Assembly (NCBI RefSeq): GCF_024700885.2
Contig: NZ_CP117016.1
DNA length: 64,000 bases
Strand: one strand, 5' to 3'
Source of the DNA: Escherichia coli
GTDB taxonomy: Bacteria; Pseudomonadota; Gammaproteobacteria; Enterobacterales; Enterobacteriaceae
Positions 49,096 through 53,307 of the stretch are shown piece after piece (the stretch's first letter is position 1; each line of letters begins with the position of its first letter). The translations under genes and the position numbers were made by a program. A model generated the notes under the pieces. That model saw only the letters and a program-made list of their open reading frames with translations. It did no database searches and was not told where the DNA came from.

Positions 49096-49097
49096 TC

Positions 49098-49130
49098 ATT
49101 AATGCGCCTGCGGGCGCATTAATCACTTCT
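49098..49130 (+). terminator. perfect palindromic hairpin after hemW
   Basis: ATTAATGCGCC-TGCG-GGCGCATTAAT followed by CACTTCTTTT. Confidence 0.55.
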
Positions 49131-49408
49131 TTTACCCCCCCGTTAATTAACTTCGGCAAAAATATATTTCTTACTGAATAAATATCGACGATATTTATTA
49201 TATATATTTAGTGAATATTTACTCATCATTTATTGATTATAAACATGTACAACCTGGCGCACAAAATTAATATTTAATTTCTGACTTTATTTCAAGTTGT
49301 GATAAACATAGACAAGTTGTCAGACAGGTTAACCAATTTGTCGCACAAAGCACTGATAAGCACAATTAGATATCAACCAATTTCCATCCTTCAACAGGGA
49401 GTTTTTTT

Positions 49409-50395
49409 ATGAAAATGAGGTCATTTACCCGCTCATTAGTCTGCGCATCCTTGCTGGCTCTGGTTAGCACTGGCGTAAACGCCGCAGAAAAAGTGACGTT
49501 AAAGTTAGCACACAACCTGGAAAGAAGTCATGTTGTACATCAGAGTTTTGAAGAGCTGGCGAAAGAGGTAAAACAGCTGTCAAAAGGTAATATGGTGATC
49601 CGTATTTATCCCAGCAGCCAGATGGGTAATGCGCGAGAAACTATGGAGTTGTTGCAAAATGGTGCACTGGATATGACCAAAGGTTCCGCCAGTGATCTGG
49701 AGTCTTTTGATAATATTTATGCTATCTATAATTTGCCGTTCTTATTTAAAGATCAGGCGCACTTCAACAAAGTGGTTTTTGGTGAAGTTGGTAAAGAAAT
49801 TATGGATTCAACAAAAGATAAAGGCTTTTTTGCTTTATCAGCTTATGTAGCGGGTACACGCAGTTTCTATGCGAAAAAACCGATTACTAAGCCAGAAGAT
49901 CTTAAAGGGCTGAAAATTCGTGTTCAGCCAAGCCCGACCACCATCAAAATGATTGAACTGATGGGTGGCTCACCCACTCCAATTTCATTTGGCGAAGTTT
50001 ATACTGCGATGCAGCAAGGTGTAGTAGATGGCGCAGAAAATAACGTGCCTTCCTGGGTGCAGACTCGACATATCGAAATTGCCAAAGTCTTTTCTGAAGA
50101 TGAACATGCCTCAATTCCTGACTTTTTGGTTATCTCCACCAAAACATGGAATAAATTAACCCCAGAACAGCAACAAATCCTCGAAACAGCGGCGAAGAAA
50201 TCCGAAGCTTATCAACAAAAATTGTGGGAAAAAATTGACGCTGACACACGTGCTCAGGCGAAAGCTATGGGTGGTGAAATCGTTAAGGTTGATAAAGCCC
50301 CATTCCGTGCCGCAGTTCAACCTCTGTTTGACGACTTCAAAAAAGATCCAAAACAAGCTGCTTTGTTAGAGAAATTCGACAACGCTGCTCAATAA
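49409..50395 (+). CDS. TRAP transporter solute-binding protein (DctP family)
   Basis: 328 aa, signal peptide, DctP-like, conserved Arg in ..AGTRSF.. Confidence 0.82.
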   Translation: MKMRSFTRSLVCASLLALVSTGVNAAEKVTLKLAHNLERSHVVHQSFEELAKEVKQLSKGNMVIRIYPSSQMGNARETMELLQNGALDMTKGSASDLESFDNIYAIYNLPFLFKDQAHFNKVVFGEVGKEIMDSTKDKGFFALSAYVAGTRSFYAKKPITKPEDLKGLKIRVQPSPTTIKMIELMGGSPTPISFGEVYTAMQQGVVDGAENNVPSWVQTRHIEIAKVFSEDEHASIPDFLVISTKTWNKLTPEQQQILETAAKKSEAYQQKLWEKIDADTRAQAKAMGGEIVKVDKAPFRAAVQPLFDDFKKDPKQAALLEKFDNAAQ

Positions 50396-50430
50396 TATTT
50401 CGGGCCAGTCTCTGGCCCTGATTTTCCAGG

Positions 50431-50943
50431 ATGCTTACAATGATATTTAACCGCCTGAAACTTGCGGTAGACCGCGTCATTGCCGCGTTTTCTGTCGCCG
50501 TAATGCTTGCTCTGGTTGTATGCGTAGTCTGGCAAGTATTTAGCCGCTACGTACTTAACCAGCCAAGTACATTAACCGATGAACTGGCACGCTTTTTGAT
50601 GATCTGGGTAGGATTATTAGGTGCTGCATATACCGTCGGCGCGCAGAGACATCTCTCTATCGATTTATTTGCTCTCGCCCTGAATAAGCGCAAGCAATTA
50701 CTTCTTAGTATAGTCATTAACGTTCTTATTTTAGGTTTTGCCGGTTCGGTCATTGTGACTGGTGGCCTGAAATTAATTGATAAAACACTGGCAACATCAC
50801 AGGTATCTGCCGCGATGCAAATACCGATGGGATACGTATATATCATTCTGCCATTAAGTGGATTGGTGATGATGTTTTATGCCTTGTGTTTTATTAATCA
50901 AAGCATTCAACAACTGAAACAACCTGCGCAGGAGGCCAGTTAA
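50431..50943 (+). CDS. TRAP transporter small permease (DctQ family)
   Basis: 170 aa, 4 predicted TM segments. Confidence 0.8.
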   Translation: MLTMIFNRLKLAVDRVIAAFSVAVMLALVVCVVWQVFSRYVLNQPSTLTDELARFLMIWVGLLGAAYTVGAQRHLSIDLFALALNKRKQLLLSIVINVLILGFAGSVIVTGGLKLIDKTLATSQVSAAMQIPMGYVYIILPLSGLVMMFYALCFINQSIQQLKQPAQEAS

Positions 50944-52244
50944 TGGATAGTTATATCGCGCTTACACTGTTTGGCTGTTTTTTTGTGCTGGTCTTTATTG
51001 GTGTGCCCATTTCGTTCTCAATCGGTATTGCCACTGTAGCTTCAATGCTGTTGATGTTTCCCTGGGATATCGCGGCAATCACTGTTTCGCAGCGACTGGC
51101 TAATGGACTGGATAACTTTGCCCTATTGGCAATCCCCTTTTTCATCTTTGCCGGAACGCTGATGAACAGCGGCGGTATTGCGATACGTTTGATTAACCTC
51201 GCCCAGGTAATGGTTGGCCGCGTTCCTGGTTCGCTTGGTCATGTGAACGTCCTGGCGAATATGATGTTTGGTTCCATTTCTGGTTCAGCCGTTGCGGCAG
51301 CTGCTGCCGTTGGTGGCACACTGAATCCCATTCAGACCAAAGAAGGTTATGATCCGGCATTTTCTACCGCTGTAAACGTCTCATCTTGTATTACTGGATT
51401 ACTGATACCGCCCTCAAACGTGTTAATTGTGTTTTCCCTGACAGCTGGCGGCGTTTCTGTAGCATCGTTATTTATGGCGGGATATTTGCCAGGGATCTTA
51501 ATGGGTCTCGCGGTAATGATAGTCTGCGGCATTATTGCTAAACGCCGTGGCTACCCACTTTCAGAAAGAGCAACCTTTGCTCAGGCATGTAAAGCTTTTC
51601 TGGATGCCTTACCAAGTTTGCTTCTGGTGTTCATTGTAATGGGCGGCATTCTGGGCGGCATTTTTACCGCAACTGAAGCGTCAGCAATTGCCGTTGTCTA
51701 CACATTTATTCTCTCGGTGCTGATTTACCGGGAAGTAAAATGGCGCGATTTACCCAAACTGATTCTGGAATCGGTTGTTACCACTTCGATTGTATTACTG
51801 TTGATCGGTTTTTCCGTGGGCATGTCCTGGGCAATGACCAATGCTGATATTCCTTATATGATCAGCGACGCATTGATGGGGATTTCTGATAACCCACTGA
51901 TCATATTGCTGCTGATTAATATCGTCTTATTAATTGTCGGCATCTTTATGGACATGACACCGGCTGTACTAATCTTCACACCAATCTTCTTGCCGATTGC
52001 ACAAGAGCTGGGAATGGATCCGGTACATTTCGGTATTATGATGGTGGCTAACCTTTGTATTGGGCTGTTAACACCGCCGGTGGGTAGTGCGCTATTTGTT
52101 GGTTGTTCTATTTCAGGTGTGAAGATTCAACATTTGATCAAACCATTGCTGCCATTTTATGCCGCATTGTTAATCGCGTTGATGATGATCACTTACATCC
52201 CGCAAATATCCTTGTTCATTCCACAGCTACTAGGGCTAATGTAA
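50943..52244 (+). CDS. TRAP transporter large permease (DctM family)
   Basis: 433 aa polytopic membrane protein; ATG overlaps dctQ stop (TAATG). Confidence 0.85.
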   Translation: MDSYIALTLFGCFFVLVFIGVPISFSIGIATVASMLLMFPWDIAAITVSQRLANGLDNFALLAIPFFIFAGTLMNSGGIAIRLINLAQVMVGRVPGSLGHVNVLANMMFGSISGSAVAAAAAVGGTLNPIQTKEGYDPAFSTAVNVSSCITGLLIPPSNVLIVFSLTAGGVSVASLFMAGYLPGILMGLAVMIVCGIIAKRRGYPLSERATFAQACKAFLDALPSLLLVFIVMGGILGGIFTATEASAIAVVYTFILSVLIYREVKWRDLPKLILESVVTTSIVLLLIGFSVGMSWAMTNADIPYMISDALMGISDNPLIILLLINIVLLIVGIFMDMTPAVLIFTPIFLPIAQELGMDPVHFGIMMVANLCIGLLTPPVGSALFVGCSISGVKIQHLIKPLLPFYAALLIALMMITYIPQISLFIPQLLGLM

Positions 52245-52252
52245 AAAATAAT

Positions 52253-52283
52253 TTGCCGGATAACTTTTTATATTATCCGGCAA
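52253..52283. terminator. hairpin between convergent dctM-like gene and yggM
   Basis: TTGCCGGATAA-loop-TTATCCGGCAA 11-bp stem. Confidence 0.5.
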
Positions 52284-52299
52284 AGGTACTTAACATGAG

Positions 52300-53307
52300 T
52301 TACTTAATCACTCCATTGCGCCGCAGTTGTTCGGTATCTTTTTTCCAGCGTTCATTAGCCTGATTGATATCGTCAATTTTCATCAAAATCGCGACTTTTT
52401 TACTGTTTATTTCTGAAACTTTCATCGTTAACGGATATTGCCCTTTCTCGAGCGTTATCCAGTCATCCTGCAATTTACGGCTAAGTTTTTGTGATTGCAG
52501 AAAAGTCTGTCGCCGTTGTTCGTTGATATCGAAATCTCGCTTCTGCTGAATTGGCACTTCATAACACTCTGCACTCTGTTTATGACATGCCACAATCGCC
52601 GGTTGATAAACCTCTTTGTCATATTTAACCGCGAAAGCCTCGCTATCGTTCTGTTTATTAAACTCATCACGCTGTTGGTGAATTTTTTTAAAGGCGTCTT
52701 CGCGGGTCATTTGCTTACCGTTTGCATCTTTTCCCCAATATGCATCCGCTGCTTTCTGCGCCGCCACCATTTGCTTATCAAGCGCTTTCACTTCCTTTTC
52801 CAGCGCAGGAATCGAGTTCTTCTGGTTATTCAACGCTGATTCAAGCTGACTAAAGCGATAATTGAAATCTTCGCTATTCACGATCAGATATTTATTATTC
52901 GTTTTGATATCGTCGACCACCCGTCCACGATCGCTGGCTGCCGCCTGAAAAGAGTAAAAGTTCACCGACCAGCCAGACGCGGGCGTTCCTTTACTGGTTA
53001 ACATCGCCGAGAATTTTACCGGTTTATCTTTCGTCCAGGTCTGTTCGAGCAGTTCGTAATCTGCCAACTGACCGACCCAGGTATAGAGATCGTCACTGGA
53101 AGAGACATCGCCTTCCGCTGACCAGGTGGCCTGATTACCCTTAGCATCAAGATTTTTTAAGCTGATGGCATCAAGCTTGAGAATGCCGTGATACTGCTTT
53201 TTGAATTGATCTTTTAAGATATTTTCAGTTGGCGGTTCGCCATCTGCCCAGACATTACCAGTCATCAACATAAGCAGCGCCGTGCCAACAATCCATTGCT
53301 TTTTCAC
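52300..53307 (-). CDS. yggM: DUF1202-family periplasmic protein YggM
   Basis: 335 aa with signal peptide MKKQWIVGTALLMLMTGNVWA. Confidence 0.85.
   Translation of the reverse strand: MKKQWIVGTALLMLMTGNVWADGEPPTENILKDQFKKQYHGILKLDAISLKNLDAKGNQATWSAEGDVSSSDDLYTWVGQLADYELLEQTWTKDKPVKFSAMLTSKGTPASGWSVNFYSFQAAASDRGRVVDDIKTNNKYLIVNSEDFNYRFSQLESALNNQKNSIPALEKEVKALDKQMVAAQKAADAYWGKDANGKQMTREDAFKKIHQQRDEFNKQNDSEAFAVKYDKEVYQPAIVACHKQSAECYEVPIQQKRDFDINEQRRQTFLQSQKLSRKLQDDWITLEKGQYPLTMKVSEINSKKVAILMKIDDINQANERWKKDTEQLRRNGVIK

Follow-up and report, generated by a model that had tools for sequence, protein, structure and literature searches.

A transporter operon lies between hemW and yggM in a 64,000-nucleotide stretch of Escherichia coli DNA (contig NZ_CP117016.1; the whole stretch is hereafter the window), which raises the questions of what it imports, how it is controlled, whether it shares its membrane subunits with a second binding protein encoded in the same window, and how it came to lie at this site. 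[quoted passage not shown] Our analysis upheld the transporter and its absence from K-12, whereas neither the insertion nor the shared channel was borne out. On balance we consider it probable that the operon encodes a hexuronate TRAP transporter, probably repressed by ExuR and/or UxuR, at a site 3' of hemW where it is ancestral.

A complete TRAP transporter operon

The operon (window 49409-52244) consists of three open reading frames (ORFs), all on the plus strand, for a periplasmic binding protein and two membrane subunits (Table 1). DctP matched TIGR00787 at 285.7 bits (cut-off 175), DctM matched TIGR00786 at 472.9 bits (cut-off 268) over the full model length, and in the Pfam search DctQ matched PF04290 with E = 3.5e-30 over model positions 1-129 of 132. 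The N-terminus of DctP is a hydrophobic signal peptide with an AxA-type end (...GVNA/AEK), and R171, within LKGLKIRVQ, aligns with the carboxylate-binding Arg of solved relatives and with Arg170 of the Salmonella binding protein STM3169; R151, R171, N211 and D238 are invariant across orthologues. DctQ is 81% identical to its Salmonella orthologue, and as orthologues are called at 165-168 aa, translation may in fact begin at an ATG 9 nt downstream. No ATPase gene was found among the ORFs of the operon. Transport by the TRAP family depends on a binding protein and is driven by an ion gradient, not by ATP. Judged by its sequence, the operon is a DctP-type TRAP transporter (TC 2.A.56), with every defining feature present at that level. 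RefSeq labels for these genes are already generic, and while the transporter class itself is well understood, the operon represents an uncharacterised orthologue group inside the hexuronate-type TRAP clade.

Several details of the initial annotation were also confirmed. The TAA stop of dctQ (50941-50943) and the ATG start of dctM (50943-50945) have one base in common, read as ...GTTAATGG..., and no regulator or catabolic gene accompanies the operon, which is flanked upstream by rdgB and hemW and downstream by yggM, ansB and yggN. Likewise, a 313-bp AT-rich leader precedes dctP and hairpins bracket the whole. The upstream hairpin has an 11-pair stem and a T-rich tail, lies directly past the hemW stop, where it forms the upstream edge of the leader, and is kept in Salmonella (locus L002). 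The downstream hairpin has a 12-13-pair stem, including a perfect 12-nt inverted repeat, and sits between the convergent dctM and yggM; because its T-run comes after the stem on the minus strand, we read it as the yggM terminator, possibly bidirectional. A further stem-loop directly 3' of the dctP stop was found in all 12 sequences that were folded, 11 orthologues among them. Its sequences are unrelated in Buttiauxella, Hafnia, Edwardsiella and Enterobacillus, and it is therefore the structure that is conserved.

The binding protein groups with hexuronate binders

The nine best solved relatives of DctP form one group (4OVR, 4N15/4LN5, 4MHF/4MIJ, 4X8R, 4N91, 4N8Y and 4XFE; E 1e-58 to 1e-68, 201-233 bits), in which 4N15, 4MHF and 4N91 bind D-glucuronate and 4MHF also binds D-galacturonate (PMC7660916). 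The C4-dicarboxylate DctP structures 9DSY, 9DTL and 9HT3 scored 111-118 bits, about half as much as the nine best, and the structures of sialic-acid SiaP proteins likewise reached about half that score.

To identify sister families we searched the representatives of 50%-identity clusters exhaustively, the nearest being 50-54% identical to DctP. One of these, P0242 (53% identity), is encoded in the order GntR/FCD regulator, DctPQM, UxaA, mannitol dehydrogenase family protein and UxaC, its regulator being 50% identical to E. coli ExuR. P0242 and window DctP have in common the signature HNL...G-x-x-R-E, with Leu and a non-Glu residue at the altered ligand positions described below. A second, P0244 (52% identity), which is widespread in Vibrio and Pasteurellaceae, adjoins UxuA and a regulator 52% identical to UxuR, and ATTGGTCAACCAAT boxes are present there.

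Salmonella STM3169, the only enterobacterial relative so far characterised, binds D-glucuronate with a Kd of 0.17 uM, and in LT2 its gene likewise has no uxa/uxu or ExuR/UxuR linkage (PMC7660916). We compared ligand residues with the E. coli UTI89 protein encoded between ygiQ and ftsP, which we take as the STM3169 orthologue because all seven reported residues (N35, Q36, E74, R150, R170, N210 and D237) occur in it at the same numbers. Five of these seven are kept in window DctP, as N36, R151, R171, N211 and D238. The substrate is likely to be a hexuronate, D-galacturonate and/or D-glucuronate, perhaps with a leaning to galacturonate.

The leader carries operator-like palindromes

In an alignment of 39 non-redundant orthologous leaders, conservation peaked only at a TGTGA element, at two palindromes (boxes 1 and 2) and at the ribosome-binding site. 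TGTGA is present in every orthologous leader, those of Edwardsiella, Hafnia and Enterobacillus included, and is a weak candidate for a CRP half-site; a full CRP site was not discernible in the leader, the second half-site being poor. Box 1 has the consensus (A/T)TGTCnGACAA across genera and resembles the K-12 exuT promoter site AAGTTGTATGACAAGTT. Box 2, the best-conserved stretch of the leader, is centred 21 bp from the centre of box 1 and 66 nt 5' of the ATG. A recognisable box 1 palindrome was found 21 bp from box 2 in most of the 34 leaders matching the box 2 pattern, this spacing being the rule by which box 1 was located.

Using a matrix built from non-Escherichia TRAP leaders alone, we found box 1 to be the best match in the window (18.3 bits), and the same matrix gave the K-12 exuT site 17.1 bits, with just 2-3 sites of at least 12 bits in ~104 kb of background. 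Conversely, a seeded and iterated matrix trained solely on K-12 uxu/exu promoter regions found its best match in the window at 49322-49339 (16.2 bits; runner-up 13.5), in a box whose 13-mer GGTTAACCAATTT recurs as an identical site in the gntP-uxuA intergenic region, which holds the uxuA promoter region. The seeded matrix replaced a naive one-site-per-sequence motif search of the K-12 promoters, which had returned a partly spurious site set. An early candidate, in which AACCAATTT repeats of the leader were taken as a conserved UxuR operator, proved half wrong; the full box is found in Escherichia only, and conservation across genera lies in boxes 1 and 2.

We predict a link to the hexuronate regulon because of these two reciprocal tests, from the leaders to exuT and from K-12 uxu/exu to the leader. 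A sequence of the ExuR/UxuR operator type is present in the promoter region of the operon, and control by ExuR/UxuR may well apply, although we would put this part of the reading at about even.

Table 1. Positions of the operon, its leader elements, the stand-alone binding protein gene and comparison loci (L numbers).
Feature	Location	Strand	Description
dctP	49409-50395	+	periplasmic substrate-binding protein, 328 aa
dctQ	50431-50943	+	small membrane subunit, 170 aa
dctM	50943-52244	+	large membrane subunit, 433 aa
AT-rich leader/regulatory region	49096-49408	+	313 bp, 68% A+T against ~49% in the whole window
hemW terminator-like hairpin, ATTAATGCGCC-TGCG-GGCGCATTAAT	49098-49123	+	terminator scan; inverted repeat I1
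TGTGA (AAAtGTGA in most genera)	49300-49304	+	~22 bp upstream of box 1 centre
Box 1, AAGTTGTCAGACAGGTT	49314-49330	+	GntR/FadR-type palindrome, TTGT-N3-ACAA class
UxuR/ExuR-type box, AGACAGGTTAACCAATTT	49322-49339	+	between boxes 1 and 2, overlapping both
Box 2, AATTTGTCGCACAAAGC (ATGTCATACAG in most genera)	49335-49351	+	second GntR/FadR-type palindrome, TTGT-N3-ACAA
Ribosome-binding site of dctP, CAGGGAG	49395-49401	+	GGAG 7-8 nt 5' of ATG in all orthologues
GC-rich stem-loop, GGGCCAG-TCT-CTGGCCC	50402-50418	+	terminator-like match, directly 3' of dctP stop
dctM/yggM hairpin, TTTGCCGGATAA-N9-TTATCCGGCAAA	52252-52284		terminator scan (minus strand); inverted repeat I8
Stand-alone DctP-family binding protein	13381-14424	+	347 aa, outside the operon, between argO and mscS
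Loci of the stand-alone family	L004 6001-7050; L006 6001-7029; L060 7001-8026; L005 6001-7038; L059 7001-8038		
Empty hemW-yggM sites	L001 1697-1850 (154 bp); L012 5759-6000 (242 bp); L058 37853-37920 (68 bp)		number of repetitive extragenic palindromic (REP) elements differs

Proposed working of the operon and its main alternative

In the working that we propose, secreted DctP would bind a carboxylated sugar in the periplasm, most likely D-galacturonate and/or D-glucuronate, and would dock on DctQM, which would import the ligand by means of an ion gradient. The operon would provide a high-affinity route beside ExuT, a carrier of the major facilitator superfamily (MFS), and the imported sugar would enter the UxaCAB/UxuAB pathway, whose genes lie at other places on the genome. 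ExuR and/or UxuR would repress transcription at the two conserved boxes and at the third, E. coli-specific box, with a possible CRP input at TGTGA. By analogy with other binding-protein-dependent operons, the stem-loop after dctP would probably raise the amount of binding protein relative to the membrane subunits.

Several observations weigh against a hexuronate transporter under ExuR/UxuR control. Apolar Leu37 and Ala75 stand in place of Gln36 and Glu74, two polar ligand contacts of STM3169, and the Glu of a G-S-E motif in 4OVR, 4N15 and 4MHF, the three structures aligned, is missing from window DctP, which has G-N-A; the pocket therefore differs, and its specificity could fall outside the two classical hexuronates. 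Characterised binding proteins are just 45-50% identical to window DctP. Neither uxa/uxu genes nor an ExuR/UxuR regulator lies next to the operon, whether in E. coli or in the syntenic genera, and linkage of either kind was confined to the sister families, which are 52-53% identical. Furthermore, no sigma-70 consensus promoter was detected on the plus strand of the leader, the UxuR-type box is confined to Escherichia and absent from Salmonella and Klebsiella leaders, and the K-12 ExuR/UxuR sites used here were derived from promoter sequence, not from footprints. The choice of repressor rests on likeness to a single exuT site and to boxes of the uxuA type, and operators of the form TTGT-N3-ACAA are generic for sugar-acid repressors of the FadR subfamily of GntR, DgoR among them. 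In addition, our literature search turned up no paper on a hemW-yggM TRAP operon.

Many of these points would suit a TRAP transporter for another carboxylate, such as an aldonate, a keto- or unsaturated uronate, or L-iduronate/mannuronate, under a different FadR-subfamily GntR repressor encoded elsewhere, and we regard this alternative as possible rather than probable. It would accommodate the lost polar contacts, the missing Glu and the distance to characterised binders, and likewise the restriction of the UxuR-type box and the occurrence of TGT-N3-ACA palindromes in the operators of several sugar-acid repressors. It fits poorly with the P0242 family, which carries the same signature as window DctP and whose genes lie within a uxaA/uxaB-like/uxaC cluster that also encodes an ExuR homologue, with the single group formed by the top solved relatives, named glucuronate binders included, and with the score of the exuT site against the background. 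We prefer the hexuronate transporter.

A second DctP-type protein in the window

The window also encodes a stand-alone binding protein between argO and mscS, here called the orphan, which matched NF037995 at 54.9 bits (cut-off 50) and whose cluster carries PF03480; the annotation of a second DctP-type protein was thus correct. The accompanying claim that there is but one permease pair holds within the window but not for the species, since yiaMNO is present in ~90% of E. coli genomes.

The orphan was found in 216 of 5426 complete E. coli genomes (4%), and a joint query for orphan and operon returned 1545 records with 1692 places, which gives ~147 genomes with both. Roughly 70-80 orphan-bearing genomes, about a third, have no operon, as in O145 strain RM8995-C1, where we verified that the orphan is intact and the hemW-yggM site empty. 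Members of the orphan family, 55-60% identical, also occur at argO-mscS in Yokenella, Kluyvera and a metagenomic enterobacterium, and the family occupies other sites in Hafnia and Rahnella, never beside Q or M genes in the contexts examined. In Hafnia its neighbours are an AraC regulator, a GFO/IDH oxidoreductase and an SBF-type carrier, and in Rahnella it directly follows a TonB-dependent receptor gene. Among its best solved matches are the very distant 2PFZ (E = 9e-9) and 2PFY (E = 6.5e-3), which we take to be Bordetella pertussis DctP6 and DctP7, orphan receptors encoded without Q/M partners. These two were reportedly described as orphans by Rucktooa and colleagues in 2007, a study that PMC5812351 cites. 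As a separate observation, the stretch directly upstream of the orphan in RM8995-C1 (L058 1-2078), where argO would be expected, holds genes for a tyrosine recombinase and a DEAD/DEAH helicase as well as a hypothetical gene, which points to an island inserted on that side.

It is conceivable, if unlikely, that the orphan serves as a second receptor for a TRAP pair elsewhere (DctQM, YiaMN or that of ygiQ-ftsP) or as a periplasmic sensor without a transporter. Were this so, one channel would serve two unrelated binding proteins and their ligands, or the protein would be a sensor; either way it would be a conserved enterobacterial orphan TRAP receptor. Still less likely is the narrower proposal of the initial annotation, that the orphan hands a different ligand to window DctQM. 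Both genes do lie within the window, Kluyvera sp. STS39-E carries both proteins on one contig, an orphan Arg (LQGTTWRTAS) aligns where TRAP binding proteins have their carboxylate-binding Arg, and the ~147 double carriers compare with ~58 expected under independence. However, the excess looks clonal because the sampled double carriers hold a 100%-identical orphan allele, the orphan and the cognate DctP are only 20% identical, and the 70-80 genomes noted above keep an intact orphan without the operon. Moreover, the family stands alone in all contexts examined, lying by unrelated transporters in Hafnia and Rahnella, and YiaMN or the TRAP system of ygiQ-ftsP would be no less available as partners.

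The operon is ancestral 3' of hemW

We surveyed the same 5426 complete E. coli genomes with a query across both junctions, covered over at least 80%, and found the operon in 1461, at a single chromosomal place; ~73% are without it. Both hemW and yggM lay under the match in every record among the matches listed. Carriers include the sequence type 131 (ST131) strains EC958 and JJ1887, Shiga toxin-producing E. coli (STEC) of O103:H2, O111:H8 and O121, and avian isolates, while K-12, a BL21 derivative, O157:H7/O55:H7 and O127:H6 do not have it. In K-12 MG1655 just 154 bp separate hemW from yggM. Empty sites of 68, 154 and 242 bp contained one to several REP elements and no operon remnant, which suggests that the REP arrays expanded after deletion of the operon.

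A cross-genus scan of one genome per species, with synteny assessed by tblastn using window proteins, yielded 39 orthologous loci. In about 30 enterobacterial species the operon lies directly 3' of hemW in the same orientation, among them another Escherichia species, Citrobacter, Pseudocitrobacter, Kluyvera, Klebsiella, Pluralibacter, Phytobacter and some Salmonella enterica genomes, while Buttiauxella, Hafnia psychrotolerans, Edwardsiella and Enterobacillus carry it at other sites. Identity to E. coli in the syntenic genera was 88-93% for HemW, 88-94% for DctP and 93-96% for DctM (the latter in Salmonella, Citrobacter, Klebsiella and Kluyvera). The G+C content of the operon follows that of the host (44% in E. 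coli, 51% in Salmonella, 52% in Klebsiella and 59% in Edwardsiella), and its alleles within E. coli diverge by up to ~3%, as core genes do. Because the same site is occupied across genera and the divergence equals that of the flanking core genes, the operon is ancestral 3' of hemW in Enterobacteriaceae and was lost from K-12 and many other E. coli lineages.

No tRNA, integrase or insertion sequence was found at the locus by tRNA scan and among the window ORFs, and the only flanking direct repeat, of 14 nt at 86% with one copy within yggM, was not convincing. This repeat (D5, at 49119 and 52304) was considered as a deletion or insertion scar and judged to be chance, since it would not yield the REP-array empty sites observed. 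The absence of the operon from K-12 and most complete genomes, its G+C content below the 49-52% of its neighbours and the hairpins on both sides might suggest a small islet recently acquired by this strain's lineage, but this is highly improbable and largely refuted by the shared position, orientation and neighbour-like divergence in about 30 species, the host-following G+C, the core-like allele differences, the lack of mobility genes, tRNA or convincing flanking repeats, and empty sites that are REP arrays rather than a clean junction. That K-12 has no copy thus reflects loss in K-12 and not acquisition by the carriers, which corrects a common reflex.

The genes that do vary at the hemW site across genera are yggM and ansB. 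yggM (DUF1202; window 52300-53307) shows 63% identity in Salmonella and ~35% in Klebsiella and Kluyvera, and several genera do not have it; in Klebsiella and Kluyvera the site also lacks ansB. Identity of the neighbouring genes stays at 82-95%. Two metagenome-assembled genomes of Gram-positive taxa, labelled Collinsella sp. (L013) and Bacillota bacterium (L014), contain 3-4 kb contigs 99-100% identical to E. coli hemW-TRAP, almost certainly as binning contamination.

Glucuronate and galacturonate, derived from glucuronides and pectin, are plentiful carbon sources in the gut. If the proposed function is right, about a quarter of E. coli strains, including the ST131 isolates and STEC named above, would own a high-affinity, binding-protein-dependent hexuronate uptake that K-12 lacks, and strain differences in the operon could influence colonisation or extraintestinal fitness. 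STM3169 has been tied to Salmonella survival in macrophages (PMC7660916).

Elsewhere in the window, two adjacent minus-strand ORFs of 206 and 112 aa (10734-11629) look like the two pieces of a LysR-type regulator gene interrupted by a frameshift or stop, possibly the pseudogene known from the same position in K-12.

Comparison with known systems

The closest solved proteins, Bpro_3107 (4MHF), Bamb_6123 (4N15), Apre_1383 (4N91), 4OVR and 4X8R, were the top structure matches (E 1e-60 to 1e-68) and match the whole of mature DctP, with the Arg in LKG-x-K-I-R-V-Q and an ENN motif conserved; the differences are the G-N-A substitution and the modest identity of ~45-50% already described.

A TRAP islet of E. 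coli in the ygiQ-ftsP interval is described in a published paper. In UTI89 this islet (L063 2458-9931) contains a FadR/GntR regulator, three dehydrogenases and the TRAP P-Q-M genes, and among 5425 E. coli genomes about 1227 have the K-12-type ygiQ/ftsP junction split, as it is where the islet is present (seen in UTI89). Its TRAP genes (L063 7109-9931), which correspond to STM3169-STM3171, have the same P-Q-M order as the window operon, and both systems are strain-variable in E. coli. The ligand-site residues conserved between STM3169 and window DctP comprise two Arg, an Asn and an Asp, together with Asn36. However, the two loci differ, the window proteins are only 46% (DctP) and 60% (DctM) identical to those of UTI89, and two of the STM3169 ligand positions are altered to Leu37 and Ala75. 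Furthermore, the regulator and dehydrogenases adjacent in the islet have no counterpart beside the window operon, and the islet leader carries AATTGGTCTA-type repeats that differ from the window leader boxes.

YiaMNO, the 2,3-diketo-L-gulonate system, is of the same transporter class and in the same species, but its genes are ordered Q-M-P within a catabolic operon. Window DctP is 30% identical to YiaO and DctM 37% identical to YiaN, and the operon fell short of the NCBIfam equivalog cut-offs for YiaM (38.1 against 260) and YiaN (296.6 against 800), which sets it apart from yiaMNO. By these comparisons, the operon is neither YiaMNO, nor a C4-dicarboxylate DctPQM, nor an STM3169 orthologue.

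ExuT, the MFS hexuronate carrier of K-12, has the same predicted substrates as the window operon and, from the likeness of box 1 to the exuT site, is predicted to belong to the same regulon. It is of an unrelated family, however, and is a single-component proton symporter that works without a binding protein.

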